DNA of 64,000 nt from Candidatus Berkelbacteria bacterium. GTDB lineage: Bacteria > Patescibacteriota > UBA1384 > JACPKC01. The DNA lies in NCBI GenBank assembly GCA_016187225.1, contig JACPKC010000006.1:25051-89050 (forward strand). The letters are read 5' to 3'. The position numbers and the translations under genes were made by a program. Positions within the stretch are counted from its first letter, which is position 1, and the number at the start of each line of letters is the position of its first letter. Shown here piece after piece: positions 2,050 through 64,000 of this stretch. The notes under the pieces are model-generated. The model made no database searches. It was not told the origin of the DNA and saw only the letters and a program-made list of their open reading frames with translations.

Positions 2050-2172
2050 ATTCTCCTCTGCAACGGAGGTGAGCACTGTAAATTTCTTAAGGCTGGTTGT
2101 CGGACTCCCACTCGAAGTGGATTACCGTTGCGGCACAGCGCCGGAATCTCACCGGACTTTCCCTAAAGATAT
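2050..2172 (-). promoter_or_regulatory. Cobalamin (B12) riboswitch, short class without the large P6 extension, plus its expression platform
   Basis: The minus-strand RNA reads AGGGAAAGUCCGGUGAGAUUCCGGCGCUGUGCCGCAACGGUAAUCC...GGGAGUCCGACAACCAGCC. This matches the conserved cobalamin-riboswitch core (AGGGAA, GGUGnnAnUCC, GCnG, CCGCAACGGUAA) and the 3' AGUCnGAnAACCnGCC element. A downstream CACCUCC can pair with the GAGGAG RBS of the ORF that starts at 2049. Confidence 0.75.
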
Positions 2173-2236
2173 GATAGTGACCTTAAGATTAAATTGTTAT
2201 TTTTATTCTAAACTAGATAGTCTTTAACGTGTCAAG

Positions 2237-11241: not shown

Positions 11242-11318
11242 GGGTCCGTAGTGAAGAGGCCTATCACGCCTCCCTGTCACGGAGGAGATCGCCGGTTCGA
11301 ATCCGGTCGGACCCGCCA
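11242..11318 (+). tRNA. tRNA-Asp (anticodon GTC), CCA encoded
   Basis: Manual fold. The acceptor is GGGUCCG/CGGACCC and the anticodon stem is CCUCC/GGAGG. The anticodon loop is CUGUCAC and the T-loop is UUCGAAU. Confidence 0.85.
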
Positions 11319-11764: not shown

Positions 11765-12688
11765 ATGAATATTTGGTCAATGACCCTCATCATTCTCGGT
11801 TTAAGTTTATTTGAGACTGTTTCTAGCATCGATAACGCGATTATCAATGCCGAGGTGCTCGGAACGATGCGAGCGCGAGCGCGACGCTGGTTTTTGATTT
11901 GAGGTTTATTATTAGCAGTCTTTTTAGTCCGCGGGCTCCTACCCTGGCTGATTATTTGGCTTGCCACGCCGGGTATTAGTCCCGCAGGCGCGTTCACAGC
12001 CGCATTTTCAAACGACCCTCGGGTTATCGTCGCAATCGAAGCGGCCGCACCCATACTCCTTACAGGCGGCGGCACCTTTCTTGTCTTTCTCTTTTTCCAC
12101 TGGCTGTTTTTAGAAGATAAGTATTTCGGTTTGCCCCACGAACGGATTCTGATGCGAACTGACCTATGGTTTTACGCAGTAATTTCTATCCTACTCTCGG
12201 CGATCGTCTGGTTTGCGCTCAAAACTGATCCAATGCTCGCTTTTGGCGCAACAGTTGGCTCAACAGCGTTCTTTATTACTCACGGCTTTAAGACGCAGGC
12301 TGAAAAAGGTGAGCAAGCGCTTCTGCACAGCTAGAACAATCTTTCAGATGTCTCCAAGATTCTTTATCTTGAGGCAATCGACGCGACTTTTTCAATTGAC
12401 GGTGTGCTCGGCGCTTTTGCTTTCACTCTTTCCGTGCCGCTAATTTTACTCGGCAATGGCATCGGCGCGCTGGTTGTCCGCCAGTTGACGCTTGGCAATA
12501 TCAAACGAATTAAACGCTACGTGTATCTAAAAAATGGGGCGATGTACTCCGTGCTCATTCTAGGTGGCGTCATGTTGACTGATGCGTTCGGCGCACATAT
12601 TCCGGAATGGTTTTCGCCCGTTGTCACGATTCTCGTAAATTGCTTACTTCTTCGGCAATCAATTCGAGCGTTCCGAAGCAGGTAAAAA
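11765..12688 (+). pseudogene. DUF475/TerC-like integral membrane protein gene interrupted by in-frame TGA (11900-11902) and TAG (12335-12337)
   Basis: One continuous reading frame carries DUF475-like motifs (TVSSIDNAIINAEVL ... LEAIDATFSIDGVLGAFAFTLSVPLILLGNGIGALVVRQLT). It is broken only by two nonsense codons, with no frameshift. The track shows only the fragments 12131..12334 and 12404..12685. Confidence 0.55.
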
Positions 12689-13132
12689 TAAAACCCCCGA
12701 AAAAGGGGGTTAAGCGCTGAAGTTCGGTAACTAGCGGCGCAACAACCAATAGTCAAGCGTCGCAAGCCAGATACCGATGGGCATGAGGAGGTAACTGATT
12801 GCAATGATCAACACCGCCACTGCCCAATGCACATGAAAGGTTTGGGTTTGGGCGACCCAACGCCAACGTTCCGACAGGCGCATTGCCTTAATTAAGACGT
12901 AGATCATACCAACGACAACCAATATAGTTATCGTATGGATTCTGGCAATGCCAGTAATCTCGCCAATGATCAAAGCAAAAAAAACTTGTCACAATAAAAA
13001 ACATAATGTTCTCCTTTTAAGTTTCAAGATCAGAAAGAGTATACACGAAGTCATTGACATTGAGACGATGTTGCCTCTATGATGCCAGGTTCCAATCAAG
13101 GGTTGGAAAATTTTAGAAGGGAATGATGTCAA

Positions 13133-13720
13133 GTGGGTTCTTTTAAAAATCAGCAAAATGGAAATGTGATCGCGGCGGCGAAAGCAGGCATTGTCTGCCT
13201 TTATGGAGTGTTCGACAACCAGCTCCGCAATTTTACCGAGATGGCTGGGTATCGGGATTATCTACGCGAATGCGCCGCAATCGTCGTGCGCGAAACAATC
13301 CCAATCGTGTATCTGGCGGGCGGGCACACGAACCCAAAGAGCAATTTCTCGGAAGCGAAATCGGTGGAGCGATACTTTCGAGATCATCTCGCACGCAATA
13401 AACCAGAGAACCAAATCAAAATCGAGCTTGAGGAGCGAAGTGTGAATACTCCACAAAATATTCACTTCTCGCTCACGCGGATACGGCTCGAATATCCGCA
13501 TCTTCGAGAGGTGCACATCTTTACCGATCGATGCCGCAAACTAAAAGGCATGGCGCTGGCGCATCACCTGTGCTTCGGGTTTCGGCACACTGTGCATGGC
13601 GTGCCGCGCATCGACACCCACCCAAACAGTGTCTGGTGGAAGCAGGCGATTCAGGCCTTCTGTTATTACTTTTTCTTCGAAAACATCCTGCGCGACATTG
13701 ATCGCGAGAAAAGGAGATGA
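13133..13720 (+). CDS. Hypothetical protein, possibly DUF218/YdcF-like
   Basis: A 195-aa ORF that ends in TGA-TAA. Similarity to DUF218 is weak and judged by eye only. Confidence 0.3.
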   Translation: MGSFKNQQNGNVIAAAKAGIVCLYGVFDNQLRNFTEMAGYRDYLRECAAIVVRETIPIVYLAGGHTNPKSNFSEAKSVERYFRDHLARNKPENQIKIELEERSVNTPQNIHFSLTRIRLEYPHLREVHIFTDRCRKLKGMALAHHLCFGFRHTVHGVPRIDTHPNSVWWKQAIQAFCYYFFFENILRDIDREKRR

Positions 13721-13802
13721 TAAGATTATTTTTTGTCTCTTCTTCAGATTCACCAGATATATCTGAAGAAGAAGATAAAAATCAGGAAAGGAGGAGAAAG
13801 GA

Positions 13803-14186
13803 ATGGAGATATACCTCTCCGATAAGCAGGTGCGGGTGCTGGTTGCCGTCGCCAAGGCCTCGAGCTTTGGTCGCTACCTTTACCCGCAATGGAGAGGCGC
13901 CATCGTCTATGACGATGGCAAAAGCGAGGTCTGGGAGGTGACGTGGCAAAATCCTTCCAACCTCAATCGCTGGCGGTTGAGGGGAGTGATTCAACAGAAC
14001 CTCCTGGAGAAGGTTCTGGGCCGAAAGGCCGAACTCCCTACACTCGGGACAGCGTTTTATTGTTGCGGCCTGGAACCGCAACAAGCGCTGGATTTTCGTA
14101 AGAAAATCCAGGCGAAAAAACAACCCCTCGCAGATCTCCCCGACCTGCAGGTTGTTGTTCGGCGCAACCCAACGAGCAGGAGGTAA
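13803..14186 (+). CDS. Hypothetical protein, first gene of a GC-rich two-gene cassette
   Basis: An excellent RBS (GGAAAGGAGGAGAAAGGA-ATG). Local GC is clearly higher than the flanks. Confidence 0.5.
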   Translation: MEIYLSDKQVRVLVAVAKASSFGRYLYPQWRGAIVYDDGKSEVWEVTWQNPSNLNRWRLRGVIQQNLLEKVLGRKAELPTLGTAFYCCGLEPQQALDFRKKIQAKKQPLADLPDLQVVVRRNPTSRR

Positions 14187-14188
14187 CA

Positions 14189-14473
14189 GTGGGAAACTCC
14201 TGCAAGGTGGGAAAGGCCGTACATCGGATCTGCGTCGCGGCCAAAAACGCACAGGAGATCCGTCTAGAGCTTGAACTTCGTGGCCAGGAAATTTGTCTGA
14301 CCGTCGAAGACGGGTCCTCGTTGGACTTCTGCGATCTCCTCGCAAAATGCTCGAACAACAAAACGGTGCCGAGCATAATCGCAGAGATCGCCGCTCTACC
14401 GCCTGAAAAGGTGGAAGAGTGGTTCCAGCGAAAGATGGATATGCAGGCAAGTCTCGTAGCACCTGGAAACTGA
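14189..14473 (+). CDS. Hypothetical protein, second gene of the GC-rich cassette (GTG start)
   Basis: An RBS AGGAGG sits 6 nt upstream of GTG. It starts 2 nt after the stop of the upstream gene, which suggests translational coupling. It is followed by the terminator cccacgctACCTGGAAagcgtgggttttt at 14495-14522. Confidence 0.45.
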   Translation: MGNSCKVGKAVHRICVAAKNAQEIRLELELRGQEICLTVEDGSSLDFCDLLAKCSNNKTVPSIIAEIAALPPEKVEEWFQRKMDMQASLVAPGN

Positions 14474-14522
14474 CGAGATTTGCCTCACCCCCCCAACCCA
14501 CGCTACCTGGAAGCGTGGGTTT

Positions 14523-15416
14523 TTACGTTTTTAGATAAATCACGGCGTGATATTTCTGCTCGGCGTCCTTAAGCCAATTATCAAACGATTGTTGGACAAC
14601 GCCCTGTTTTTCTAGGATCTCAATTGCGTGGTAGCCAAAATCGCTTTTAACTGGATTTTCCAGTATACCCGCGGGTGAGGAAAAAATTGCCTCCTCAATT
14701 ACCGGAAGCTGTTCGCCGCGCGCAACCCAACCCATATCGCCGCTGTTATCACGACTTTCTAGATGTTGGGAAAACTCTTTCGCAAGCGCGCTAAAATCGC
14801 CATTCTCGTTCTTGAGTTTACCGATCAACTCTTTCGCTTGATTTTCATCGGTGACCAAAATATGACGAAAATGCACTCGCTCCAAAAGCTCTGTTTTAAC
14901 TTTATCCTGCAATAAACGAATCTCAATCAGATCGCGTAAACGATCTCGACTCGAACCATAGAGCTCTTCAAGAATCGTATTTAATTCCTCCTCGCTCACC
15001 TCGCGCGGTTCGCCTTCTCCACCCTGCAAAACCAAAATTTCTTTATAAGCGGCGTCGATTTCAACTTGTTTCACTTTAAGATTAACATTTTTAGTCGCCC
15101 GTTTAATTGTGGCGTTAGAAACTAACAAATCAATCACCTGTCGACCAATCGGCGTACCAGGATCAACTGCTTCACCGGCTTGATTTGAGCGAGCGATAAA
15201 GGTTTCGATAAACGTTCGATAGTCTAAATACTCACGCGCCCAAATGAGTTGCCCCCCCACTCGCGCCACCGGGATCGGTAACCAACGAGCTAGCGAGCGG
15301 AGTTGAGGCGCATCATTGCCACGCAAGAAAGGTACGCCGATGCCAATCGTAATAAACACAATCAGACTTGCAACACCCGCGATCGTCCAGGGTAGCCATT
15401 TAGGAAATGCAGACAT
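14523..15416 (-). CDS. Parvulin-type peptidyl-prolyl cis-trans isomerase (PrsA/SurA-like), membrane anchored
   Basis: PpiC domain sequence (FRHILV...GDMGWVARGE...SDFGYHAIEI) with an N-terminal TM helix. Confidence 0.75.
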   Translation of the reverse strand: MSAFPKWLPWTIAGVASLIVFITIGIGVPFLRGNDAPQLRSLARWLPIPVARVGGQLIWAREYLDYRTFIETFIARSNQAGEAVDPGTPIGRQVIDLLVSNATIKRATKNVNLKVKQVEIDAAYKEILVLQGGEGEPREVSEEELNTILEELYGSSRDRLRDLIEIRLLQDKVKTELLERVHFRHILVTDENQAKELIGKLKNENGDFSALAKEFSQHLESRDNSGDMGWVARGEQLPVIEEAIFSSPAGILENPVKSDFGYHAIEILEKQGVVQQSFDNWLKDAEQKYHAVIYLKT

Positions 15417-49175: not shown

Positions 49176-49259
49176 TGGTGCCGAGGGTGGGATTCGAACC
49201 CACAAGCCTTGCGGCGCAGGATTTTAAGTCCTGTGCGTATACCGTTCCGCCACCCCGGC
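49176..49259 (-). tRNA. tRNA-Leu (anticodon TAA), type II with long variable arm, CCA encoded
   Basis: Manual fold. The acceptor is GCCGGGG/CCUCGGC and the anticodon loop is CUUAAAA. There is a 13-nt variable arm, and the T-arm is GUGGG-UUCGAAU-CCCAC. Confidence 0.85.
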
Positions 49260-50978: not shown

Positions 50979-51330
50979 ACCGACGCGGTTGAACGAGGTC
51001 GAAGACCCCGTTGCCGGGGTCCTCGGCGCCTCCCCACTCTTCATCGGGCGGCCATTCACGGCCGACCCAACGAAGAATTGGAGGCGCAAAGATTAGAATC
51101 ATAAGCAGTAAAAAACTGCTTATGATCTGTTCCAGCGTCAATCGCGTCACCTCCTTCGCTGGGTTCGATTTTGATCTTCGAAAAGATCAAGCCCAGCGAG
51201 CAGGTTCCCTCTAACCCACTCCGGATTCAGGAGAGGGCGGTACTTCTAATCAAAGAAACACTGCCCCAATCCGGAGTGGATGAGAGGGGAGGAGCTTGGG
51301 AGCTCCTCATTGACTTGCATTGGTCTATCT

Positions 51331-51454
51331 ACAATAATAGATACACCAATGCAGACACCCCGACCACCAGCAATATAATTGCGATAGCCAGGGCAAAGAT
51401 GAGAGTGCGAAATGACAATTGCTCGTCATACTCGACCCTCTTTTTCTTTTCCAT
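51331..51454 (-). CDS. 41-aa hydrophobic micropeptide (MEKKKRVEYDEQLSFRTLIFALAIAIILLVVGVSALVYLLL)
   Basis: Preceded by the conserved repeated leader ...ATCGCGAGAGGAGGTGAAAA-ATG with a perfect SD. The gene is below the track cutoff. Confidence 0.4.
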
Positions 51455-51607
51455 TTTTCACCTCCTCTCGCGATGATTAATTACGCGACGGGATTTCCTC
51501 GGGAGTGGCATCAGACTCTCCCGAGGTGAAGGAGTCGCATTAATAACCGTGAGAGAAGCCCGACCCCGTTCGACTCGCTCTGCGAGTTCGCTCGGGGTCG
51601 GAAAAAA

Positions 51608-52240
51608 TCACCATGGCCAGTATTTCGCCCGCTTCTGACTCTTCATCAGAAGCGGGCGACTGGGCGCCCAACCACACTCCTTACTGCCCATGGGGCATAG
51701 GGTGTAGTGGGCACCCGAGCCGCAGGCGCACTCGGCCGCCTGGGCCAGAGCCTCGAGAACTTCAGGTCGGTTTCTGAAGTTCCCGAGAACTTCAGGTCGG
51801 TCGAGTTGGCGAACCTCGACGGGTCCGCTGATCGCCTCGAAAAAAAATTCGAGGTAGACCGATTCCCGCTGGCTAAGCGGGTCAGTCACCCCCTCGTACT
51901 GAAGGGTCCAACCGGCCACGCCTTGCAAGGCAACGAGCCTCGCGCCGGAGGTCGAGGAGGTCCAGGCGAAGGACGTGACGTCCTCCTCCAGATACCCCCT
52001 CCAACCAGAGTGCTCCCCAGGCACTCGATGGGCGACGGGAGCGGTCGGAGGCATTACCTCCCGCCCGCCCAAAGAATTTTCCGCCATATAGACGAGCCCC
52101 TCGCGGGGTGCCGCCTCGGGTTCGCAGTCCTCCCCCCGTGGCATTTGGTTGGTTAGCCCGAAGGCCAACGAAACCAAATTTTCCCACGAGGTTTCCCCCG
52201 CGAAAATGTTTTGCTGGGTGGCGCTGGTGAGGGTCGTCAT
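51608..52240 (-). CDS. Hypothetical protein (210 aa) with an internal 19-bp tandem duplication
   Basis: An RBS GGGAGGG sits upstream of the ATG. The duplication ccgagaacttcaggtcggt x2 (51758-51810) encodes RPEVLGNFRNRPEVLE. Confidence 0.5.
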   Translation of the reverse strand: MTTLTSATQQNIFAGETSWENLVSLAFGLTNQMPRGEDCEPEAAPREGLVYMAENSLGGREVMPPTAPVAHRVPGEHSGWRGYLEEDVTSFAWTSSTSGARLVALQGVAGWTLQYEGVTDPLSQRESVYLEFFFEAISGPVEVRQLDRPEVLGNFRNRPEVLEALAQAAECACGSGAHYTLCPMGSKECGWAPSRPLLMKSQKRAKYWPW

Positions 52241-52482
52241 GTTGACGCCCTCCCTTCTTGCCCATTTTTCGATGGGCGGATCGTGGGTTTTTAACGTGTT
52301 TTACCACACGGATGACAAAGCTAACTCATCCCCATTGGGCATTAGTTAGCAGGGCATCACCCTGCTGCTATTTTAGGACCCGAGCACAGAGTCCTCGCTC
52401 TTCACTTCGATCCTCGTCGGATTGACGAAAAGCGAAGAAAGAGCCCTGCCTCACCGGTCGAAACCGACGAAGCAGGATGGGA

Positions 52483-52860
52483 TCAGTCGTCGGGCTGGCG
52501 ACGCGCGTCTGCCCCGAGTTCATCGAACTCGAGAACTAGACGTCTGACCCGTCGGAAACGAACAAACCGGTAGTACCGGCCGTTCACCTCCCAATCCGAT
52601 TCCTCCGGGTGCGCCACGATCTCGGCTTCCGACCAGAGTGGTCGAAGTCCCAGATCGACCATTCGGGCGAGAACAGAGAGCGGGACGACGGTAATCACAT
52701 CGTCATATCCACCCTCGCGGACTCGTCGCACGATCGTCTCGGCATTGTCGAACGGGCGCGAATCGCGCTCAACCCTCACATCCGCCCCAAACAACCGGCG
52801 CAAAGCGCCGAGCTGGACGGGATTCATCCCGTGCCGGCTGATCCAAAGGATTCGTTTCAT
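52483..52860 (-). CDS. Hypothetical protein (about 125 aa; start MKRILWISRHG...)
   Basis: An RBS GGAAAGGAGGGGG sits upstream of the internal ATG at 52860. The longer track ORF extends upstream without an RBS. Confidence 0.45.
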   Translation of the reverse strand: MKRILWISRHGMNPVQLGALRRLFGADVRVERDSRPFDNAETIVRRVREGGYDDVITVVPLSVLARMVDLGLRPLWSEAEIVAHPEESDWEVNGRYYRFVRFRRVRRLVLEFDELGADARRQPDD

Positions 52861-52877
52861 CGAATCCCCCTCCTTTC

Positions 52878-53066
52878 CTAGTTGATCCCGACGGTCTGCC
52901 CCGAGTATTGCGCGGCGATATACTGCGCATCCTCGAAATCGACCGGCTCGGACAAAATTTGGAACTCGCCCGGGTTTCGCGGGTCGGCAAACTCGGTCCA
53001 CAGCACCAGATAATTCCGGTCCGTGGTCGGCTGTCCTGACTCCAGCTCAACGATATGGATGGCCAT
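52878..53066 (-). CDS. Hypothetical 62-aa acidic protein
   Basis: It is preceded by the conserved repeated leader ...ATCGCGAGAGGAGGTGATCAC-ATG. Confidence 0.45.
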   Translation of the reverse strand: MAIHIVELESGQPTTDRNYLVLWTEFADPRNPGEFQILSEPVDFEDAQYIAAQYSGQTVGIN

Positions 53067-53195
53067 GTGATCACCTCCTCTCGCGATAATTGATTACGCA
53101 ACAACCCTTAAGTCGCGCGCTGATCGATAACCGTGAGAGAAGCCCGACCCCACAATCCACCGAAGCGAACGTGGGGTCGGGAAAAACAACTACTC
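53063..53195 (-). promoter_or_regulatory. Repeated intergenic module: terminator-like hairpin (cccgacccc...ggggtcggg), a conserved cttctctcacggttat box, and the leader gcgtaatNaatNatcgcgagaggaggtg-ATG. A second copy lies at 51455..51612.
   Basis: Two copies have the same order of conserved blocks and a variable spacer. Each directly precedes a minus-strand small gene. Confidence 0.6.
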
Positions 53196-53429
53196 GTCGA
53201 CCGGAAAGACGAAATACTGGAATACGCTGAAACTAGTTGCCGCGGCAACCGTTCGCGCATCCTCCAATGCTTCATCCACCGTATCGTGCGTGCGAGTCAG
53301 AAAACAAACGTGCCCGTCGTAGCGATAAAGTTTTGCGCCCAACCGCTCGTACTGAACAACATCGTCAACTGGCTCGCAGTAGTTGTTCTCGACAAAGCCA
53401 CCGCGGTATTTCATTTTTTTCTCCTCCAT
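53190..53429 (-). CDS. Hypothetical 79-aa protein
   Basis: An RBS GGAGGAGAAAAAAATG. It lies downstream of the 53564..54151 gene in the same orientation. Confidence 0.4.
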   Translation of the reverse strand: MEEKKMKYRGGFVENNYCEPVDDVVQYERLGAKLYRYDGHVCFLTRTHDTVDEALEDARTVAAATSFSVFQYFVFPVDE

Positions 53430-53563
53430 TCTTTTGATGGGGCAGTCGCTATCAGCGAGATGTCCATCAAAGTTCAGAGGCGCGGTGGCTTAAAAAACTG
53501 TTGGCCAGCCTTCCGAGCGGCTGGCAAAAAAAGTGAACCTCGCTCGGACGAGGGAGATGAGGG

Positions 53564-54151
53564 CTAGATTTGCGGCATGCGCCGCTCATCTAGCCACTCC
53601 CACTCGCTGGGGAGTGAGTCCCTCTCGGGGTAGGGGGTGGTATCGTCCCACCCCTGATTCTGCCACGCCGCCGTGTCGGCCCGCCGCTTGACGCGGCCGG
53701 TCATGAGGGCCTCGTCCTCCGGGGCCGAACCGGAGGATATCAGTCCCCCCTGGTAACCCCGCCACATCTGGTGGCGGAGATACTTGTCCCCCGCCAGGAT
53801 GGGTCCAAGCGAGGAATAGCACCAGGGATGCCGCGAGAGATACTCTCGCAGGAACCCCTCGAGTCCGACCTCGAACTCCAGGCGCCGAAGCGCCCGGCTC
53901 GCCGTCGCCCGCAGTTCGTGCGGGAGGGACTCCTCCTCCCCCACAAAGGGGAAGTAGGGTCCGTGTGCCGTATCTGGCACCTCCCCCAGGGCCCCAGACA
54001 ATTTGTAGTACGGGACCTGGTTGACCCGCACTCCCAGGATGGCCGGCGAGGCGATCCATCCTTGGTGCTTTCCGTCCACCTGGACGGAGTAGAGCCCGGC
54101 GACCTCGCCGGACTCTACCAGGGTCAGGGTGCTGTTCTGGGTGCTCTGCAT
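53564..54151 (-). CDS. Hypothetical 195-aa protein (MQSTQNSTLTLVESGE...) sharing a 5' module with the gene at 58185..58625
   Basis: The start is at the ATG inside the conserved roughly 135-bp promoter/leader repeat (RBS GGAGGTG). The first roughly 10 codons are homologous to the paralogous cassette. Confidence 0.5.
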   Translation of the reverse strand: MQSTQNSTLTLVESGEVAGLYSVQVDGKHQGWIASPAILGVRVNQVPYYKLSGALGEVPDTAHGPYFPFVGEEESLPHELRATASRALRRLEFEVGLEGFLREYLSRHPWCYSSLGPILAGDKYLRHQMWRGYQGGLISSGSAPEDEALMTGRVKRRADTAAWQNQGWDDTTPYPERDSLPSEWEWLDERRMPQI

Positions 54152-54266
54152 GGCAGGCACACCTCCATTCTTAAACTCCCGCTTGCGCGGGGCGATGGAA
54201 GGACTATAAATAGTCAGCCCGTCGCCCAACATAAACGAGTTATTTCCGCTCATCCTCGATTCCTCA
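54130..54266 (-). promoter_or_regulatory. Repeated promoter/leader module, about 135 bp, copy 1; copy 2 lies at 58614..58749
   Basis: The two copies are near-identical, for example gtgctctgcatggcaggcac...cccgcttgcgcggggcgatggaaggactataaatagtcagccc...cataaacgag...catcctcgattcctcatcggtttcga. The module contains a GCAA-tetraloop hairpin cccgc-gcaa-gcggg in the leader and the start codon of the downstream gene. Confidence 0.7.
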
Positions 54267-54408
54267 TCGGTTTCGATGAAAGTCCGAGGTAACTCAAAAA
54301 AAACTTTTGGCCAGCCGCGATGCGGCGGTGAAGCTTGATTAGCATCAAACCTCGCCGCCACAACCCGAGTTTGCAGAATCCCTGTTAATTTCCTATACTT
54401 GAGTTATT

Positions 54409-54648
54409 ATGCCTAATGTCTTCATTCCCAAAGAATATGAACGGACTCGCGAGCTCGTCGCCATCCCTAAAAAGAAGTATGAGGCTTATCTTGAGGCGCA
54501 ACGCGCTCAAGCACGACCAGCCAAACATGCCCAATCCAAACGAGATCAAGAGCTGACGGAGGTACTGGAAATTATCCGCAGAGGTAAAGCCGACTACCGC
54601 GCCGGTAGAATTCGGACTGTCCAATCGCTTTCGGAACTCATGGAGTAA
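54409..54648 (+). CDS. Type II antitoxin (RelB/ParD/Phd-like)
   Basis: A 79-aa protein immediately upstream of a RelE/ParE-like toxin gene, with a 5-nt gap. A sigma70-like promoter TTGCAG-17-TATACT lies upstream. Confidence 0.6.
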   Translation: MPNVFIPKEYERTRELVAIPKKKYEAYLEAQRAQARPAKHAQSKRDQELTEVLEIIRRGKADYRAGRIRTVQSLSELME

Positions 54649-54653
54649 ATCCA

Positions 54654-54926
54654 GTGCGTCGACCGATCGCAACTATCGATGTGACGCCAGATTTTGAAAA
54701 GGCTTTTCGTCGCCTGCCAGTTCGTATCCAGCGTTTGGCCACCAAGAAAACAAGTTGGTTTCGCGATAATGCACACGATTCCAGGCTAAAAACTCATAAG
54801 TTGAGCGGCCAACTCAACGAACACTGGTCGTTTTCCGTAAATCGCGAGTACCGGATTCTATTTGAGTTCACGAGTAATACCACCGCACTCTTCCACTCAA
54901 TTGGCACCCACGCCATCTATCGTTGA
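54654..54926 (+). CDS. Type II toxin, RelE/ParE superfamily
   Basis: A 90-aa protein with the motif HKLSGQLNEHWSFSVNREYRILFEF, characteristic of RelE/ParE-fold toxins. Confidence 0.65.
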   Translation: MRRPIATIDVTPDFEKAFRRLPVRIQRLATKKTSWFRDNAHDSRLKTHKLSGQLNEHWSFSVNREYRILFEFTSNTTALFHSIGTHAIYR

Positions 54927-55294
54927 AGTGCGTCTGCAACCCGTAAGACCGATCCGGATCAATCCCCAGGCGCCAAAACTCGATGTGAGTGGAGAGATGC
55001 TTCCATCGCTGGTCACAACTATTCGTTGCGTCAAGTAAAAAGATCCCTTCCTCCGATTTTAGGGGAAGAGAAGAAGCGGGGCGGGAGGCAAGCGTGCCTG
55101 CGACCGCCCCAAGCTTTGGCCGGGTTCCGATCGATTGATCGGAAGCGTTAAGACGGGAGCAATCCTTCGGGGTGTTCGCTCAACCGTCTTGCCGGCCTAC
55201 CCGCAAAAGTTGCGGGTAGGGTTGGATTCTCCGCCGTCGGCGGATTCTTACTCTCGCGCCACCAACCAAGGCGCGGGAGGGCAGTGTTTATGCT

Positions 55295-55510
55295 AGACCA
55301 GTCTCGCAAAGAGACAGTCGGCTTCATGCTCGACGTCCTCTCCCGAGTCTGATCTAGACTCATTTCCACAGCAGAGACACTGTCTGTACTCAAACAGTGT
55401 GCCTCCACTGGAGAAATTGTGCAGTTCGTTGTTTTTGATCCACTGCACAATTTCTCTTTTCAGCTCGGGATCACTTTCGATCGCCCGAGCAAGATTGGAG
55501 AAAAGCATTC
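55295..55510 (-). CDS. Small 71-aa Cys-containing protein (…YRQCLCCGNESR…)
   Basis: An RBS GGGAGGAGGGAGAAAGA-ATG. It contains a perfect 12-bp inverted repeat within the CDS. Confidence 0.35.
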
Positions 55511-56194
55511 TTTCTCCCTCCTCCCACCCTCGCGGGTAGGATGCCTGGTTGGCCGCGGGTGCGGGCCAGGGCGGGCAGATTCCCAATTCTTCCGTGATCG
55601 TGGGTTTCGACCACGCTCTGCCAGTCCGTGGAGGACTAGCATCCCGTTCTTTGAACGAGGAGCGTCCCCACGGAGCCTGGTGGCTCGGAAGAATTGGGTT
55701 TCCCCTTGTTCGTCCACTCACCAACTGCCAGCGGTGAGAGACAGGGCGGTTCGCCCCTCCAAGCGCGCGAAGACTAACTGGTCGAAGCGCGCGCTAGAGC
55801 CGAGTTTTGGTTACTTGCTTACTCGGGTGCAAGGTTGTCTTTATTCTCTGGGCGTTGCTGCCGGCAGACACATTTTTTTTTACGAGAGTGTCCACTCGTT
55901 CCAATTATTACTAATTGGATCGTTCCCTGCGCTGACCGGGCAAGGAGACCGGACTGATTTATGTTTTAGAAGCAACGCCAGTGAACGTTGCTCAACCGCG
56001 CGCGTGCCTTCATTAAAGAGGCCGCTTCTCACGGATAACTATGGTCACCCCTTAAAACCGCTCCGACAGTTTTAAGGGGATCTTTTACGCCACCCGACGT
56101 TGCCATTATGGTTTAGGCAACTCTCCCCGCCGACCTCAACGCTACAACGCGCTTAGGGCCAACGGTTGACGGGTGGGAGCCTGTCGTGGCACCC

Positions 56195-56602
56195 CTATGC
56201 GAGAAGGGGCAGAAGCACCTGCCGACGCTCCTGGTCAAATGTGTCCTTTAATAGACACCGTTTCGACCAGGCTTTAGATGGTTCAGCATTCAGGTACTGA
56301 ACCATCTGTCTGTACGCCATCTTGTCCGACGACGCACAGAACGCCCGTGCTCCCCCCTCGAGCTGACGGCCAACCTCCTCCTGGAGGTCCCAGATTGACG
56401 AAAGATTTTCCCATCCTTCGCCTCCAAGACTCTCGTCCAGGAAGAGCACGGCGTACTGGCGTTCAGCCAGCGCCTGCCGCGTCTCGGCCGCCGTCGTAGG
56501 AGCCACGACGTCCACGCCAACCGGCAGGACAGCAAGGAGCCGAGAGAGGAACATCTCTCGCCACTCCTCGCAGTCCTCGATCAGCAGGACGCTTTGGTTC
56601 AT
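56195..56602 (-). CDS. Standalone response-regulator receiver-like domain protein (degenerate)
   Basis: LLIEDCEE...VLFLDESL places acidic residues at CheY-like positions. The RBS is GGAGGTGAAAAG-ATG. A perfect 11-bp inverted repeat lies within the CDS. Confidence 0.45.
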   Translation of the reverse strand: MNQSVLLIEDCEEWREMFLSRLLAVLPVGVDVVAPTTAAETRQALAERQYAVLFLDESLGGEGWENLSSIWDLQEEVGRQLEGGARAFCASSDKMAYRQMVQYLNAEPSKAWSKRCLLKDTFDQERRQVLLPLLA

Positions 56603-56929
56603 CTTTTCACCTCCTTCGTTGGACTCAATTTTGATTTACCGATCAAATCCAACGAGGAAATGAATGCGCTCCTTAAGAACAAATCTGCTGCAAAAGTTCA
56701 ACCATGAATCAAACTCCAGTCACTATGGCTCTAATGACGTGCTCGCCCATCATCTTAACGACCTAACCCATTTCCGCACCGCGATCGCCCGCTGGCTGAC
56801 GAAACAAGTTGACTGATCAAGCCTTTCGAGACTTCGTTGACGATCTCCGATTCACGATTTTATAAGTTAATAAATCATGAACCCGAGTCGATCTCCCTCT
56901 ACCTGCTTGCACAGGCGAGGGAGAAAAAT

Positions 56930-57226
56930 CTACATCGCTGCCCGAACCCGGTCGGCAGCTAGTCGCTCTCTACGCCACCTCTCCTCGAGGTACTCGGCGT
57001 ACCAAGCGAGCAACTGCTCGGTGGTGCCGTCGAGAGCGGCGTTAACCGCCTCGAGCTGGGCGGCTTCTTTCTCCAGGTCGAGGCCGTCGAGCGGCTCAAG
57101 CTGGAGAAAGTACGCCGCTTCACGAATGGCGGCGTCCTTGGCGCGGCGCACCACGGCCGGAACCATGGCGTTCTTGGCCTCCGCCTCGGCGTACCGGCCC
57201 TCCCGGTTGTCGCGTTCGGTCGCCAT
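56930..57226 (-). CDS. Hypothetical 98-aa acidic/helical protein
   Basis: An RBS GGAAGGGAGG sits upstream of the ATG. Confidence 0.4.
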   Translation of the reverse strand: MATERDNREGRYAEAEAKNAMVPAVVRRAKDAAIREAAYFLQLEPLDGLDLEKEAAQLEAVNAALDGTTEQLLAWYAEYLEERWRRERLAADRVRAAM

Positions 57227-57301
57227 TTTGAGCGACCTCCCTTCCTTAATTGGTATTCAGGGAACCACCCTGCTGCTATTTTAGGACCCGAGCACAGAGT
57301 C

Positions 57302-57351
57302 CTCGCTCTTCACTTCGTCTTTCGATGAATCGAAAAGCGAAGAAAGAGCCC
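57302..57351. repeat. 50-bp repeat, left copy, flanking the vapBC cassette (ctcgctcttcacttcgtctttcgatgaatcgaaaagcgaagaaagagccc)
   Basis: It is identical 50/50 to the copy at 58098..58147. It forms an imperfect palindrome with bulges. A variant copy with a different 17-nt centre lies at 52398..52447. Copies 52358.. and 57266.. also share a 36-bp 5' extension. Confidence 0.8.
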
Positions 57352-57427
57352 GGCTCTCCGGTTGATTTGAAGATCATAGTTGGAATCAAGAGTGAAAGAT
57401 TGGTAAGATAATTGACGAAAGGAACTG

Positions 57428-57730
57428 ATGCCCAAAGTAATCAGTAAACCAAAAATCCGCGTTCCTGATGCGTACCAGGGTTATCAACGTTTGGTGGCGA
57501 TTTCGGAAACAGATTACCAGCGCCTGGTTGACAAGATGCGACCTGCCAAAACCGATCCGGCCGATCGCGCCACTGTCTGGAAAGCAGTGGAAGGCATCTG
57601 GGCTGACCGAGACGATCTTGATCCAATCCGTTATCAACGGCAATTACGGAACGAGTGGAATAAACGCGAAAAACGCCAGTATCGCTTGGGCGGGCGGGCA
57701 AAAAATTCGACGCACGCTAAGCGCTCATGA
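57428..57730 (+). CDS. vapB: VapB-like antitoxin
   Basis: A 100-aa protein that overlaps the downstream PIN toxin gene by 4 nt. Its GC is clearly lower than the surrounding island. Confidence 0.55.
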   Translation: MPKVISKPKIRVPDAYQGYQRLVAISETDYQRLVDKMRPAKTDPADRATVWKAVEGIWADRDDLDPIRYQRQLRNEWNKREKRQYRLGGRAKNSTHAKRS

Positions 57731-58092
57731 CGCTCGACACCAATATCATCATCACGCTTCTCAAAAACGAAGCGTCTTTGGTGAAATGGTTCCAGCAACT
57801 GCAGCGCGACCAGGTTATTTTCATATCCTCGATCACGCGAGCTGAACTTTTATCAGAATCAAAGTCAACCGCTAGGCAACTTGCTCGGATCGCACGATTT
57901 TTGAATTCCTTCCATTCTGTGCCACTAGATGACAAAATTGCCGATCATGTCGCAAGCTTGCGGCGCGCCTACTCTAAACTGCATGTTCCTGATGCCGCCG
58001 TGGCCGCCACTGCAATCATCATGGGCACGCCACTCGCCAGTCGCGACAAGGTATTTCGAAAGATTAAGGAACTCGATTTGATTGTGCCATAG
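57727..58092 (+). CDS. vapC: VapC PIN-domain toxin
   Basis: A PIN domain with a conserved acidic residue in MTLDTNIII near the N-terminus and conserved Asp/Glu further on, in a 121-aa protein. Confidence 0.7.
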   Translation: MTLDTNIIITLLKNEASLVKWFQQLQRDQVIFISSITRAELLSESKSTARQLARIARFLNSFHSVPLDDKIADHVASLRRAYSKLHVPDAAVAATAIIMGTPLASRDKVFRKIKELDLIVP

Positions 58093-58097
58093 GCTTT

Positions 58098-58147
58098 CTC
58101 GCTCTTCACTTCGTCTTTCGATGAATCGAAAAGCGAAGAAAGAGCCC
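58098..58147. repeat. 50-bp repeat, right copy, flanking the vapBC cassette
   Basis: See the left copy. It is an exact direct repeat. Confidence 0.8.
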
Positions 58148-58184
58148 CCCGCTCGAAATGTTTTGCGAGACGGGGGGACAACGT

Positions 58185-58625
58185 TTAGACAGGCGCCTCG
58201 AGCGGGCGCTGGACGAGGGCTTTGCGCACCTCGACCCCGACGACTTCGTAGCCGCCGAAGGCGAGGATGTCACGCCCTCGCTCATCCTGGCCGGTCACGA
58301 TCACCCGCCCGTCCTCGCCCCGCTTGAAGACCTGGCGCAGGACATGAATGCCCTGCTCGGCCAGCCCCTCGACGAGGGCGATCATGACCGGCTCGGGCCC
58401 GCCGGCCTCGACCGCCACCACCTCCCTCTCCTCGGTGGCCTCGATCATGTCGATGACCGCCTGGACGGCGGCCACCGGATCGGCGCCATAAGGCACGTCC
58501 TCGGTGACCACCTCGAGGTCGTCACCGAAGACGACCGCGAGGGCCGCTCGACGGTCCTCACTCAACGGGTGACGCATCACCCGCAGGATTACCGGGGTCA
58601 GGATGGTGTTTTCGGTGCTCTGCAT
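58185..58625 (-). CDS. Hypothetical 146-aa protein (MQSTENTILTPV...) carrying the shared 5' module
   Basis: It has the same promoter/leader/first codons as the gene at 53564..54151. Confidence 0.5.
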   Translation of the reverse strand: MQSTENTILTPVILRVMRHPLSEDRRAALAVVFGDDLEVVTEDVPYGADPVAAVQAVIDMIEATEEREVVAVEAGGPEPVMIALVEGLAEQGIHVLRQVFKRGEDGRVIVTGQDERGRDILAFGGYEVVGVEVRKALVQRPLEAPV

Positions 58626-58872
58626 GGCAGGCACCTCCTCTCATGAGCTCCCGCTTGCGCGGGGCGATGGAAGGACTATAAATAGTCAGCCCAGCGCCCA
58701 ACATAAACGAGTCAGTTCACACTCATCCTCGATTCCTCATCGGTTTCGACCCGTTCTAAACGAAGTCGAAGAATGAGAGCCCGAGGTGAGCCCCCGACCG
58801 CATTCAGCAATGGGTCAGGGTCAAGCAGTCCGGCGCAAGTAAGCTACCTGGCCGGACTGAAGTCATGAGGCG

Positions 58873-61800
58873 CTAGCGGCGGTTGAACCGCGCTTTGAGC
58901 GCCTCGATCTGGGCCTGGGCGGTGGCCGCGTCTTCGGCAGAAGGTTCTGCCGGCGCGGCTTCGCGCGCCTTAGCCCGTTTCTTGCTCTGCCCCGATCCAG
59001 CCGATTCGCTGGCGCGAACCTCCGGCTCGGGGACTTGCGGTTTGTCTTCCGGGAAGGGCGGCTCGAGCCGCACTAGCGTGAGACGGAAGGAGCCAGTGTT
59101 GACCAACTCCCTTACCTCGCTCACGTAGTACGACTTGCCCGCAACCGGCTCCGGTGAGCGGCGGTCGAGCACGAACTTGGCGTGCTTCGATCCGGCCTCC
59201 CACTGGAGTTCTCCGGTTTTGGGGTGTCGCCCCTGGCGGAACGAGAGCTTGAACCATGCACGCTGGGAGACCATCTCCTCAGCGCGCTGGTAATCAGCCT
59301 CGTACCGCTCCCGATTCCTGGCCGCCCACGCCTCGTCCGTAAGAATGACTCCCGTGAAGTCATTCCGAACGAGTGGGCAGGCGCAGTCCGTCGGGAACCA
59401 CTCGGCGGCAACAGTGCCATCGATGAAAATTTTCACCGTGGCCACCGCATCCCACCGTTTATGGGTCCCTTCCGGCCGCACCTCGGCCAGGACAGCTTCG
59501 TCGTACTGGGTCAGCCCACTGTTTGACTGGGCCCAGACCACCCGGTTGATCGGGTGGAGGTTGGTCTGGCGGCAAACCAAACGGGTTTGACCCGTCTGGT
59601 CGCCCCACTCGGTATGCTCTTCAACCATCGGGTGGGAGCAAACCGGGCAGGTACCAAGGAGCGTGCGCAGGCGATCGTTCGCCGATCGCTTCAGCTCCTC
59701 TTTCTGCCGCTTGGCGTCCTCGGCCTTCTTTTGGAGCTCGGCCGTTTTCACGGAGAGCTCCTCAAAGAGCGCGCACGTCGACACGAAGTCGTGGCGCTTA
59801 AAGGCTTCGGTCGCCTCAGTCGCAAGGCGCTCAACCTCCCTCTCCTCCTTATAGGAGAGCAAACCATCGCGCTCATAGGTCGCGATCGTTTCCTGCTCCT
59901 CCCGAATGAGGGCGAGGGCGGTCTCCGCCTCGGGGCGCTTGGTCTCGTTGGTCTGGTGGTGAGCCAGCGCCAACTCGACCCGCGCCCGGACAGTCGCGAG
60001 CAGGTCGAGCGCCTTCTTCGGCTCCGGGGTGCGGCTGTAATAGCCGTCGCTCGTCCGGAGCAAGGCGCGCGCCTGCTCGATCTTTGCCGAGAGTCCCTCC
60101 GACTCGTACCAGCTGTCTTTCCCCGCTTCACGCGAGGTCAGACCGTAAGCCTGGTACTCGTCGAGGTTCACCCCGGCAAGCAGTTGGGCGACCGCGTCGG
60201 CTTCAGCTTGCGCTTCGGCCACGTAGCGGTCGCGATTTCTGCGTTCGTCTTCCTCGGCATCGAGCTTGGCCTTGGCTTTGATGGCCTCGGCCTGGCTCGT
60301 CTGCGCCTCCTCGCAAGTGCGGTACCATTTCTGGTACCAGCTCGCGTAGTAGGCGCGGAACGCCGGGTAGGCGAACGCCCCGGTCACGGCGTCATAGATC
60401 TCGGGTTCGGCGACCGCGGGGAGCGGCTCCAAACCCTTGACCACGAGTGTCGTGTCGGGGTGGTTGGTCGTGAACGCCTGCCAGGCCAACTCCAGCCGTT
60501 GCGCCTCGATCTGCTCGCGCAGGGTCGAGACGTCGGTGCCAGAGATGGCGGTGTAGCCCTTGTCCTGCAGCTTGAGCGTGTAGCTCGCGCCGCTCGGAAT
60601 GAGATGCTCCACCACTGCCTGGTCGGCGTTCTGGATGGTCGCCACCGACACCTGGATGGTGACGGTCTGCTTCTTCTCGCTCGAGTAGTACGACGCGCTG
60701 TCGTACTTATACTCGACGTTGCAGACCTCGCCGCCGATCAGCACGGTGTCGGGCGCCTGCTCGCGGATGTACGTTGCTTCCTCACCGGAAACAAACGTCG
60801 CCCGCGCCAGGCCAAAGTCGATGCCCTCGATCGCCGGATCGTCCATCCGGTAGATCTCGCCGAGTCGCTCGGCATAGATCTTGGCCGCCTCACTTTGAGT
60901 GAGCGGCCCCCGAACGGCGCCCCCGGACTTGGCTTGAAGTTCGGTCAGCTCGGCATTGACTGCCTGGCCAACTTCCCCCAGCCAAACTCGGGCAAACTGG
61001 TCGGCCAAGGCTTTGGTCGCCTCGGCGTTTCTCTGGGCGGCCACCACCGTCGTTGCGACTTCGGTGCCGTTGAACACCAGCACCTCGTCACAGACGACCT
61101 CGCCTCGCTCCTCACTCCACCGATAGTTCCGGCAGAGATTGGAGGCGAGGTGAGGCGCCACCTCGGCCAGCCAAGTCGGGTCAACCGCCGAGGCATTTTT
61201 GATCAGGCGGAGCGTCATTGAACGCCCTCGCCGATCTGTAATGCCAAGGTCGAACGGTTGGCCGACCAGCCACTCGGGCAAACTCGAGCGCTTCATCAAG
61301 CAGCTCTCCTTTGCCAGCTCTCGTTCGCCGTTGCCGCCGTTCTGGTATCGACCACTATAGGAAGAGCTCTTCCTATACAAATGGTCAACCAACCCAGTCG
61401 AGCAGGCCTTGAGAGTGTCTTGCTGAGAGCCGAAGCTCCCAAACTCAACATCCCCGACCCCCCGCACGGCGTCAGCAAGCGTGGGAATCTGGGCGTAGGC
61501 ACGCTTGATGTTCATGCCCACAATCCCAGCTTCCCGCCAGTCAACCTGCTTGAGGCTCCGATCCGCCTCCCGCAGGGCCCGTTTGACCTGCTCTCTCCGG
61601 CTCTCGCGCTGTTTGCGCTTGAGGTTCTTGTTAAAAACCTCTTGCCGCGGCGCGGTGCCGAGCAGGTGCTCAATCGTGTTCTGGCCAATCAAGGCGACCA
61701 GAACCGCCAGTTGGGCAAGTAGATCGCTCTCAGTTTCCTTGACACCGAAAAACGATCGCCACTCGCCACTTCTGGCAACGATGTCGCCGGCGTCAAGGCA

Positions 61801-63108: not shown

Positions 63109-63147
63109 GGTAAATTTCCCTTTCGGGAAAGCCGTCTAGCCTTTCGG

Positions 63148-63879
63148 CTAGGCGGCCAACAGCTCCTCTCGGAGATCGGCCGCCGCCCAAGCGACTTGCG
63201 CTCGGGCGCGACCCTGCTCGAACGGCGACCTTGCAGCCAGCCGTTCGGCGAGGGCCGACTCAAGGGAGTCGGCGGCGTCATGCCACCGACTCACGCTCGA
63301 GTCCCGGGCGACCAGGAGCAGAAGCTCCGGTCGCCGGGAGGCGACCACGGTTTTGCGCCAGAGCCCCTGGCACACGGGGGCAGAAGCGGCCAACGCCTCA
63401 CGGCGAGCCGCTTCTGCCTTTTGTTGGCGCGCCCACTCGCCTTTGGGCAGGGCGCGGCAATTCTGCCGCTCCTGCTTGCGGGCGCGGCGAGCCTCCCGGG
63501 CGGCGCGGTCGCGGGCCACCTTGGCCAGCACCGCCGCCCGGGTCACCTGACCGCGGACAGGTTGGGCTTTCGCCCGTTCCTGCCGCCGGTTGGCCCGCCG
63601 GCGCGCCGTCCGCCACGACCGCCCCTCGCTGGGGACGGCATGGAAAGTTTTTCTGCCACAAAGTGGCTGCGGCACCCAGAGCTGGTCGCCCATCAGAGCG
63701 GCCAGCTCCCCGGCCGCGAGGCGAATGCCCCGCGACCGAAAAAACTTCTTCGCCCGGGTGCGAGAGACGAACTCTCGACGGCCCGGGCAGGTCATGACAC
63801 CATTTTCCCGGGTGATGCCAAACCCGGTGGCGAGCACGAAGCTCGCCAGGAAAACGAGAACCAGCCCAATAATGAGCAT
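63148..63879 (-). CDS. Hypothetical membrane-anchored Arg-rich protein (243 aa)
   Basis: An RBS GGAAGGAGGAAAACGAG-ATG. It has an N-terminal TM helix and a highly basic (R/A/E-rich) remainder. Confidence 0.45.
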   Translation of the reverse strand: MLIIGLVLVFLASFVLATGFGITRENGVMTCPGRREFVSRTRAKKFFRSRGIRLAAGELAALMGDQLWVPQPLCGRKTFHAVPSEGRSWRTARRRANRRQERAKAQPVRGQVTRAAVLAKVARDRAAREARRARKQERQNCRALPKGEWARQQKAEAARREALAASAPVCQGLWRKTVVASRRPELLLLVARDSSVSRWHDAADSLESALAERLAARSPFEQGRARAQVAWAAADLREELLAA

Positions 63880-64000
63880 CTCGTTTTCCTCCTTCCCCCG
63901 CTTTGCGGGTTTTTCAACCGCACGGGGGATTCACCGGCTGGCGAATGCCCACCCCGAACAGCGACGCCTTTCACGTCTCCCTCTGCGCCACATTTTTCCT

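Follow-up and report, generated by a model that had tools for sequence, protein, structure and literature searches.

The stretch of DNA analysed here (the window; 64,000 nucleotides of a Candidatus Berkelbacteria contig, JACPKC010000006.1) contains a gap of 802 bp (13721-14522) between a plus-strand DUF218-like gene and a convergent minus-strand parvulin gene. This locus raises the question of what the gap holds, which of its strands is coding, where the DNA came from and what its products may do. The DUF218-like gene (13133-13720, plus strand) encodes 195 aa, matches Pfam PF02698 with an E-value (1.6e-5) whose score falls below the gathering score, and ends in a TGA at 13718-13720 that is followed by a TAA. 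It is regarded as intact, since its C-terminus has the same length as in the syntenic relative L004. The parvulin/SurA-like PPIase gene (14523-15416, minus strand; PF13616, E=6e-17) forms the conserved right-hand flank and is the final gene of a conserved LCP/membrane protein/parvulin block. Between this block and a tRNA-Asp gene (11242-11318) lies a variable interval, which includes the gap.

The interval between tRNA-Asp and the parvulin gene

In two related loci, L003 and L004, the LCP/membrane protein/parvulin block is kept and is convergent with a DUF218-like gene; the DUF218-like protein of the window is 42% (L003) and 34% (L004) identical to the syntenic ORFs in tblastn. The stop codons of the DUF218-like and parvulin genes are separated by 104 bp in L003 and by 212 bp in L004, as against 802 bp here, and no ORF is present between them in either locus. 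A metagenome scan with an LCP alignment gave 80 further loci, and a scan with the parvulin protein as the query gave none. The two ORFs of the gap (ORF1 and ORF2, described below) were compared by tblastn with all 82 related loci, that is, the two syntenic relatives and the 80 further loci, and nothing was found at E<=1e-3. A search for the block in related genomes had been proposed in an earlier, sequence-only reading of this DNA; its outcome is an empty site in both syntenic relatives. In addition, tRNA-Asp and the parvulin gene are separated by 3.2 kb in the window, by 3.3 kb containing other genes in L004 and by about 60 bp in L005. By these comparisons, the insert occupies an interval that is variable between relatives. 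The nearest relatives are distant (parvulin identities of 62% and 56%), so that gain in this lineage and loss elsewhere are not strictly separable.

The insert is taken to be real sequence because it is identical (100%) in contigs from three sequencing runs. Strain variants lacking it were sought by exact-protein look-ups, which returned identical contigs only, and the insert with both genes is so far known from one organism only. Its flanks are conserved chromosomal cell-envelope genes and not prophage (DUF218, parvulin, LCP and TsaE, syntenic across Berkelbacteria-like loci). The flanking genes that were scanned include no integrase or transposase, and the 3' end of tRNA-Asp does not recur as a direct repeat. 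Similarly, no target-site duplication was found between the flanks of the insert, their longest common word being the 7-mer AGATAAA. ORF1 was also considered as an HUH (IS200-type) transposase; this was ruled out on reading its sequence, which contains no histidine.

The coding strand of the insert

ORF1 (13803-14186, plus strand; NCBI hypothetical protein HYW32_01445) encodes 127 aa with a mass of 14.7 kDa and a pI of 9.9, in which no signal peptide or membrane segment is visible by eye. ORF2 (14189-14473, plus strand; NCBI hypothetical protein HYW32_01450) encodes 94 aa, with a mass of 10.3 kDa and a pI of 5.35. The Shine-Dalgarno sequence of ORF1, AAGGAGG (13788-13794, plus strand), is located 8 nt before the ATG, and that of ORF2, AGGAGGT (14178-14184, plus strand), 4 nt before a GTG start which follows the ORF1 TAA stop (14184-14186) by 2 nt. 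The latter Shine-Dalgarno sequence is built from the last two Arg codons of ORF1 and its stop codon, an arrangement typical of translational coupling. In the 50-kb core, a 7-mer Shine-Dalgarno match at 3-12 nt precedes only 9 of 4905 start-like triplets (0.18%), and the ribosome-binding sites of ORF1 and ORF2 are the strongest in the neighbourhood. In this they are unlike core genes, half of which are without any Shine-Dalgarno sequence, and resemble the genes of the GC-rich region at 51-64 kb. Downstream of ORF2, an intrinsic terminator (14495-14529, plus strand) consists of a 10-bp stem with 6 G-C pairs and a 7-nt loop (14495-14521), followed by the T-run TTTTTACGTTTT; it has a predicted RNA folding energy of -18.6 kcal/mol (z=-3.5) and adjoins the parvulin stop codon at 14523.

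The GC content of 13803-14473 is 0.55, compared with 0.476 +/- 0.029 in same-size windows of the first 50 kb (1-50 kb; z=2.55, top 0.3%), and the excess is found at third codon positions. The values for GC1/2/3 are 0.62/0.40/0.66 in ORF1 and 0.60/0.40/0.62 in ORF2. Thus GC1 and GC2 of both ORFs match the core-gene pattern of about 0.60/0.40, whereas GC3 (0.656 in ORF1 and 0.621 in ORF2) lies above both the mean (0.458) and the maximum (0.617) of the core, as determined from 842 and 944 same-size windows of 31 core genes. Both ORFs have the codon-position pattern of real genes together with foreign-looking third positions. The features listed in the sequence-only reading, namely two plus-strand ORFs with ribosome-binding sites, a coupled GTG start 2 nt after the stop, a terminator and a rise in GC, which the windowed comparison bears out, are all present in the sequence.

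Both ORFs were called independently by PGAP and by the Logan gene caller. With a native codon model, both plus-strand frames ranked first, with coding margins below the 5th percentile of real 100-codon pieces. With a composition-matched codon model trained on 34 genes of relatives, ORF1 and ORF2 were the best coding frames by 7.2 and 9.1 nats, respectively, over the next-best frame, and these margins fall at the 5th-25th percentile of real 100-codon pieces.

The opposite strand carries a 239-aa ORF (13782-14501, minus strand), which follows the parvulin gene on the same strand at a distance of 21 nt and could itself be the true gene. Its position behind the parvulin gene is operon-like, and 239 open codons are many for a sequence of 55% GC. 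When the synonymous codons of both plus-strand ORFs were pooled and permuted, the antisense frame was still open in just 0.8% of trials. However, this low value is an artefact of pooling codons between the ORFs. Permutation within each ORF left the antisense frame open in 100% of trials across ORF1, owing to the absence of TTA, CTA and TCA codons from ORF1, and in 4.8% across ORF2 (p=0.048). Further, the codon models give the plus strand a total lead of 16 nats or more over the antisense ORF, and the antisense ORF has a GC1/2/3 of 0.63/0.49/0.53 and a Leu/Arg/Pro-rich translation. It has no Shine-Dalgarno sequence, its GTG start falls inside the terminator stem, and no gene stands behind parvulin in that orientation at the site in L003 or L004. 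The sequence-only reading had dismissed this frame as a GC artefact and had named homology of its product as the finding that would overturn that view; no homologue was found in a search of 5.8 billion proteins, and no family match in Pfam, PHROGs, NCBIfam or PADLOC. An antisense gene is thus largely refuted and highly improbable, and 13782-14501 is best described as a shadow ORF. As a gene model the plus-strand pair is preferable, on the strength of the codon models, the GC content by codon position, the ribosome-binding sites and the two gene callers.

Origin and expression of the two genes

Neither ORF1 nor ORF2 has a credible homologue in the databases searched. Searches of Pfam, PHROGs, NCBIfam and PADLOC with both proteins and with the antisense translation gave nothing below E=0.1, and in the 5.8-billion-protein search ORF1 and ORF2 retrieved only themselves. 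ORF1 was searched exhaustively (phmmer, 1.84 billion representatives), and ORF2 by word-indexed and library searches. No match to PDB sequences was obtained for either protein; viral contigs and phage genomes yielded nothing usable, and neither did plasmids (best E=0.3). Single-sequence AlphaFold2 models of ORF1 and ORF2 were unconfident (pLDDT 38 and 47, respectively), and a Foldseek search with the ORF2 model gave meaningless matches (best E 0.44, TM 0.2-0.3). The earlier impression, gained by eye, that ORF1 and ORF2 resemble no known family is in agreement with these empty searches. The only phmmer matches of ORF1 among the 1.84 billion representatives were repeat-inflated, to MBG-like repeat proteins and translated repeats. 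A kinship with MBG-domain repeats was rejected, as these matches are sums of 4-9 weak stretches; a single stretch reaches at most 28 bits, with 33% identity over 40 aa, and there is no Pfam match at E<=1.

One phage match was pursued further. In tblastn against phage genomes, ORF1 had a single match (E=0.03), which covers 95 aa at 37% identity and lies in the huge phage LR745208; aligned pairwise, the two score 35.8 bits, where shuffled sequences reach at most 21.9. The phage protein in question belongs to AAA_23, and proteins related to it carry the annotation of exonuclease subunits. On this view, ORF1 would be a truncated remnant of a phage SbcC/Rad50-like ATPase and the cassette a phage-derived pseudogene fragment. 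However, hhalign of a profile of the 8-member AAA_23 family against ORF1 gave a probability of 2.4% over just 44 columns, and the family-invariant residues G95, P99, F121 and Q124 are not kept in ORF1 in the pairwise alignment. ORF1 also lacks the Walker A region (P-loop), the match does not continue into ORF2 or the flanks, and no match of this type reached E<=0.001 when ORF1 was searched against the 1.84 billion proteins. The SbcC-like lead was rejected after the alignment of the 8-member family, and such a descent is very doubtful.

The foreign GC3 and the absence of the insert from syntenic relatives fit the horizontal acquisition suggested by the sequence-only reading. It is likely that the DNA was acquired from a donor of higher GC content, roughly 55-60%, and, with somewhat less assurance, the block is best read as an orphan bicistron that is specific to this lineage, was probably acquired and sits in the variable interval beside tRNA-Asp. 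A native pair that evolved fast or arose de novo in this lineage, and which the relatives lost or never had, would account for the lack of a donor sequence in any collection searched. It would also suit the syntenically conserved DUF218 gene next to it, whose GC3 is likewise raised (0.59), so that the local composition is perhaps just unusual. Against such an origin, the GC3 of the pair is above that of all same-size windows of the 31 core genes, the strength of the Shine-Dalgarno sequences is like that of the 51-64 kb region and not like that of core genes, and the interval is demonstrably variable among relatives. A native origin is thus rather improbable.

Alternatively, the block may be inert foreign DNA, acquired or decaying, with ORFs that are open by chance and that no longer encode, or never encoded, functional proteins in this host. 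The lack of homologues, the low coding margins and the unconfident structure predictions point in this direction. Beside the insert, in the same interval, is a DUF475 pseudogene with two in-frame stops, which suggests that decaying DNA is tolerated, or selection relaxed, locally. In addition, since the contigs are 100% identical and no homologue was found, there is no sign of purifying selection on ORF1 or ORF2. Inert DNA would, however, have to contain by chance two adjacent intact ORFs, each with a 7-mer Shine-Dalgarno sequence at the correct spacing (a chance of about 0.0018 each), a precise stop/start coupling followed by a matching terminator, and GC1 and GC2 as in real genes. Inert DNA is therefore unlikely, and an acquired pair of genes remains the preferred reading.

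With regard to expression, just one strong promoter-like site was detected on the plus strand between 12800 and 15600, a sigma-70-like site at 13054-13083 (plus strand; TTGACA-18-TATGAT, 11 of 12 matches), 5' of the DUF218-like gene. No sigma-70-like promoter was found in 13721-13802, with a consensus that may differ from CPR promoters. The description of the cassette as self-contained thus applies to its ribosome-binding sites and its terminator, and not to a recognisable promoter of its own. There is about an even chance that the cassette has no promoter and is transcribed from that of the DUF218 gene; transcripts would then start from the site at 13054-13083, read through across the cassette and stop at the terminator at 14495.

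An inverted repeat or RNA hairpin (13728-13782, either strand) lies between the DUF218 stop codon and the ribosome-binding site of ORF1. Its core has perfect 12-bp arms (13738-13749 and 13761-13772) around an 11-nt loop and extends imperfectly to arms of 22 nt, with a folding energy of -22.2 kcal/mol (z=-2.35). The perfect 12-bp stem had been recognised in the sequence-only reading, which placed it about 14 nt too far to the right (13752-13786 instead of 13738-13772). The hairpin was rejected as an intrinsic terminator, as it has a T-run on its 5' side and an A-run on its 3' side on both strands, while the terminators of this genome are ordered A-run, stem, T-run; it is also absent from the output of the terminator scan. 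No exact copy of its half-site was found elsewhere, no promoter-like site overlapping the palindrome was found, and at a permissive threshold Rfam gave only sub-threshold, miRNA-like matches. If transcription does read through from the DUF218 promoter, this 20-bp AU-rich intercistronic stem would serve in RNA processing or stability, or else as a palindrome for protein binding.

Possible role and comparison with known systems

Sequence alone cannot tell the function of the ORF1 and ORF2 proteins. If both are produced, the basic 14.7-kDa and the acidic 10.3-kDa protein could be synthesised at a constant ratio and assemble into a complex. Of the possible roles, that of a toxin-first toxin-antitoxin-like module, or of another selfish or defence accessory module, ranks first by architecture, an assignment that we offer only tentatively. 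The toxin/immunity pair put forward in the sequence-only reading draws on architecture and charge only and gained no support, as neither ORF1 nor ORF2 matched any toxin, antitoxin or defence model below E=0.1 (Pfam, NCBIfam, PADLOC). It is a rather distant prospect that the two are founding members of a new toxin-antitoxin-like or anti-phage module on a tiny mobile insert that targets the interval by tRNA-Asp, or that they are genes born de novo. A true addiction or defence module would add a family that is currently invisible to homology-based searches. Small hypothetical genes abound in CPR genomes, and specialists would not be surprised by an orphan pair in a variable stretch beside a tRNA gene; taken by itself, the pair is ordinary in such a genome and of little consequence. 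The locus nevertheless offers a clean, well-delimited case of how gene content changes in a reduced episymbiont genome: relatives have an empty site, GC3 is foreign and the ribosome-binding sites are strong.

Among known systems, toxin-first type II toxin-antitoxin loci (of the HigBA, HicAB and MqsRA type) share with this pair two small co-oriented cytoplasmic proteins, the first basic and the second acidic, a 2-nt stop/start gap with the downstream Shine-Dalgarno sequence inside the upstream gene, and a palindrome just upstream at an accessory, variable and compositionally foreign site. However, ORF1 and ORF2 match no recognised family (RelE/ParE, MazF, HicA, HigB, VapC, Phd, RHH or Xre), no promoter was found over the palindrome, and Pfam revealed no DNA-binding domain in ORF1 or ORF2. 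Phage morons and other small accessory inserts are similar in being short blocks of atypical composition, with their own terminator, between genes that are adjacent in relatives. They differ from the present block, which is flanked by chromosomal cell-envelope genes, has no promoter of its own that could be found and has no match among PHROGs or viral contigs. The ORFan hypothetical proteins of CPR/Patescibacteria are likewise small, have no homologues outside one organism and are already deposited. Nothing essential separates ORF1 and ORF2 from these; what the present locus adds is a coupled pair with foreign GC3 at a site that is empty in relatives.

Gene layout and coding strand

The 802-bp gap (13721-14522, here called the cassette) between a DUF218-like gene (13133-13720, plus strand, ending TGA-TAA) and a gene for a parvulin/SurA-type PPIase (14523-15416, minus strand) contains two small plus-strand genes, ORF1 (13803-14186, 127 aa) and ORF2 (14189-14473, 94 aa), the latter with a GTG start 2 nt past the ORF1 stop. 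Both products are already known as deposited sequences, being identical to HYW32_01445 and HYW32_01450, respectively, of a Candidatus Berkelbacteria bacterium MAG (161-kb contig), and both are annotated as 'hypothetical protein'. The same DNA is present with zero mismatches in Logan assemblies from three runs (SRR12113424, SRR12113420 and SRR12113422); thus, the sequence is not an assembly accident.

A 239-aa frame on the minus strand (13782-14501) lies opposite both genes and could be taken for the real gene. A codon model from 31 genes of the core (the first ~50 kb) ranked both plus frames top by small margins, as expected under that model if the codon usage of the block is foreign. When the model was instead built from 34 genes of matching composition in relatives (GC1-3 0.61/0.44/0.62), ORF1 outscored its best alternative frame by 7.2 nats and ORF2 by 9.1 nats, and the pair as a whole led the antisense frame by at least 16 nats. 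Among real 100-codon pieces, the margins of ORF1 and ORF2 rank between the 5th and the 25th percentile. GC1/GC2 of ORF1 (0.62/0.40) and ORF2 (0.60/0.40) follow those of core genes (about 0.60/0.40), only GC3 being raised. The antisense frame has GC of 0.63/0.49/0.53 by codon position and a product rich in Leu, Arg and Pro; no Shine-Dalgarno (SD) sequence was found for it, its GTG start lies within the terminator stem and a homologue search gave no match. Its length is explained by the absence of TTA, CTA and TCA codons from ORF1, which leaves the antisense frame automatically open there, together with its openness across ORF2 in 4.8% of synonymous permutations. The plus-strand pair is also the choice of both PGAP and the Logan gene caller. 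We therefore agree with the sequence-only reading that the antisense frame is an artefact; that it is the real gene is highly improbable, and the plus-strand two-gene model is very likely correct.

Expression signals and base composition

The observation as a whole was borne out, since the two ORFs, their SD sequences, the coupling geometry, a terminator, a hairpin and raised GC are all present. ORF1 is preceded by AAGGAGG (8 nt upstream) and ORF2 by AGGAGGT (4 nt upstream). Of 4905 start-like triplets in the 50-kb core, only 9 carry such a 7-base match at 3-12 nt, and an SD is missing from the tested start of about half of the 31 long core ORFs. The terminator proposed downstream of ORF2 is present, with its stem at 14495-14521 and then a T-run (dG -18.6 kcal/mol, z=-3.5). 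The hairpin described ahead of ORF1 also exists, at a corrected position: its perfect 12-bp arms are 13738-13749 and 13761-13772, lengthening imperfectly to 22 nt and spanning 13728-13782 (dG -22.2, z=-2.35). This AU-rich intercistronic stem of 20 bp is not a terminator, because it has a T-run 5' and an A-run 3' on both strands, unlike the A-run/stem/T-run order usual in this genome. No promoter-like site was found in 13721-13802, so that 'self-contained' overstates the independence of the cassette; the DUF218-like gene is preceded by a strong promoter-like site at 13054-13083 (TTGACA-18-TATGAT).

Two further features adjoin the hairpin. A 921-bp Logan contig from the third run (L098, SRR12113422), corresponding to 12855-13775, stops 3 nt after the 3' arm of the perfect core, which could be due to low coverage or to strains branching at the cassette's left edge. 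In addition, a 74-aa plus-strand ORF (13717-13941), whose ATG overlaps the DUF218 stop (ATGA) and is preceded by AAAGGAG, crosses the hairpin and enters ORF1 by 139 nt in a different frame; this ORF may be a coupled leader or have arisen by chance.

The claim of raised GC was upheld: at 0.55, ORF1 plus ORF2 rank in the top 0.3% (z=2.55) against windows of equal size from the 1-50 kb core, where GC is 0.476 +/- 0.029. GC3 is 0.656 in ORF1 and 0.621 in ORF2, with a mean of 0.458 (sd 0.036, maximum 0.583) in the 31 core genes, and it is at most 0.617 in windows taken from those genes at the two ORF sizes (842 and 944 windows). High GC3 and strong 7-mer SDs are likewise typical of genes in the 51-64 kb part, which hints at a common style of foreign DNA; no sequence similarity was found between that part and the cassette.

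From ~51000 to 64000, GC climbs to 0.52-0.67, having been about 0.47 before, and GC3 reaches 0.55-0.79, with tRNA-Leu (49176-49259) and tRNA-Ser (53708-53803) near the switch. Many ORFs here are preceded by very strong AGGAGGTG ribosome-binding sites, and none has a Pfam or PHROG match except a 1411-aa DEAD/HA2-type helicase (58873-63108, minus strand). Two copies of the SD-plus-start string GGAGGTG-CCTGCCATGCAGAGCAC, with one mismatch between them, lie ~4.5 kb apart on the minus strand (54143-54166 and 58615-58638), which suggests paralogous small genes. The region as a whole represents either a large foreign island or a chimeric join. At the other end of the window, a cobalamin riboswitch match (2074-2200, minus strand) scores 31.9 bits against an Rfam gathering score of 31.5.

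A variable interval in relatives

A genome scan with the parvulin protein located two syntenic relatives, a Berkelbacteria MAG (L003; parvulin 62% identical, locus GC 0.64) and a Patescibacteria MAG (L004; 56%, GC 0.60). Both keep the order LTD protein, TsaE, small ORF, LCP, membrane protein and parvulin, with the DUF218-like gene convergent with parvulin. The block is absent from both, the stop-to-stop distance being 104 bp in L003 and 212 bp in L004 with no ORF between. In 80 more metagenome loci (LCP 42-60% identical), tblastn with ORF1, ORF2 and the antisense ORF found none at E<=1e-3. From tRNA-Asp to parvulin, the window has 3.2 kb, which hold a coiled-coil ORF, a probable DUF475 pseudogene, the DUF218-like gene and the cassette, L004 has 3.3 kb with other genes and a further relative locus, L005, about 60 bp. 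Neither an att-like repeat of the tRNA 3' end nor a target-site duplication was found. Composition makes gain here a good deal likelier than loss elsewhere, the polarity not being strict because the relatives are distant.

Within the same interval, a DUF475/TerC-like membrane protein gene (11766-12688, plus strand; PF04332, E=6e-12 over the last 93 aa) is in one frame with two in-frame stops (TGA 11900-11902, TAG 12332-12334) and is probably a pseudogene. Two independent Logan contigs (L001 and L002) both start within tRNA-Asp (11242-11318), at 11287, which fits a tRNA sequence that is shared or forms a branch in these metagenomes. The DUF218-like orthologue of the 64%-GC relative L003 (10993-11865, minus strand) is longer by a C-terminal extension of ~84 aa that closes with a Cys-rich CPMCW...HCGG motif; the genes of the window and L004 lack this extension.

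Protein identity and proposed mode of action

Neither protein had appeared to belong to a known family, and Pfam, PHROG, NCBIfam and PADLOC indeed gave none at E<0.1. A word-indexed search of 5.8 billion proteins returned only ORF1 and ORF2 themselves, and PDB sequences, viral contigs and plasmids yielded nothing. An exhaustive phmmer search of 1.84 billion representatives with ORF1 gave six non-self matches, all repeat-inflated and rejected as MBG-like 'ITWxNPxxIxYGTALG' repeats (single stretches <=28 bits) or translated tandem repeats. The only lead, a tblastn match between ORF1 and huge phage LR745208 (37% over 95 aa, E=0.03), sits within an SbcC/Rad50-like AAA_23 protein. This assignment was rejected: an 8-member family profile gave a probability of 2.4% over 44 columns, the family-invariant G95, P99, F121 and Q124 are not retained in the pairwise alignment, ORF1 has no P-loop and the match is not continued in ORF2 or the flanks. 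AlphaFold2 without an alignment was unconfident (pLDDT 38 and 47), and Foldseek with the ORF2 model returned only noise. The proteins are small, soluble-looking and of opposite charge (pI 9.9 and 5.35), with no signal peptide or membrane segment by eye; ORF1 has no histidine.

Orphan accessory bicistrons like this cassette are common in CPR genomes. Of the original interpretation, an accessory, probably acquired plus-strand pair stands, and the toxin/immunity role is unproven. ORF1-ORF2 would form the 3' portion of a DUF218-ORF1-ORF2 transcript ending at 14524, on which the intercistronic stem may serve as an RNA processing or stability site or as a protein-binding palindrome; its length suits an RNase III substrate. 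That two small proteins, one basic and one acidic, would be translated in coupled fashion suggests that they form a stoichiometric complex. Tests for membership in any toxin-antitoxin family placed neither ORF in one. The nearest functional parallel would be a type II toxin-antitoxin pair with the toxin gene first, a tentative comparison that we consider rather unlikely to hold.
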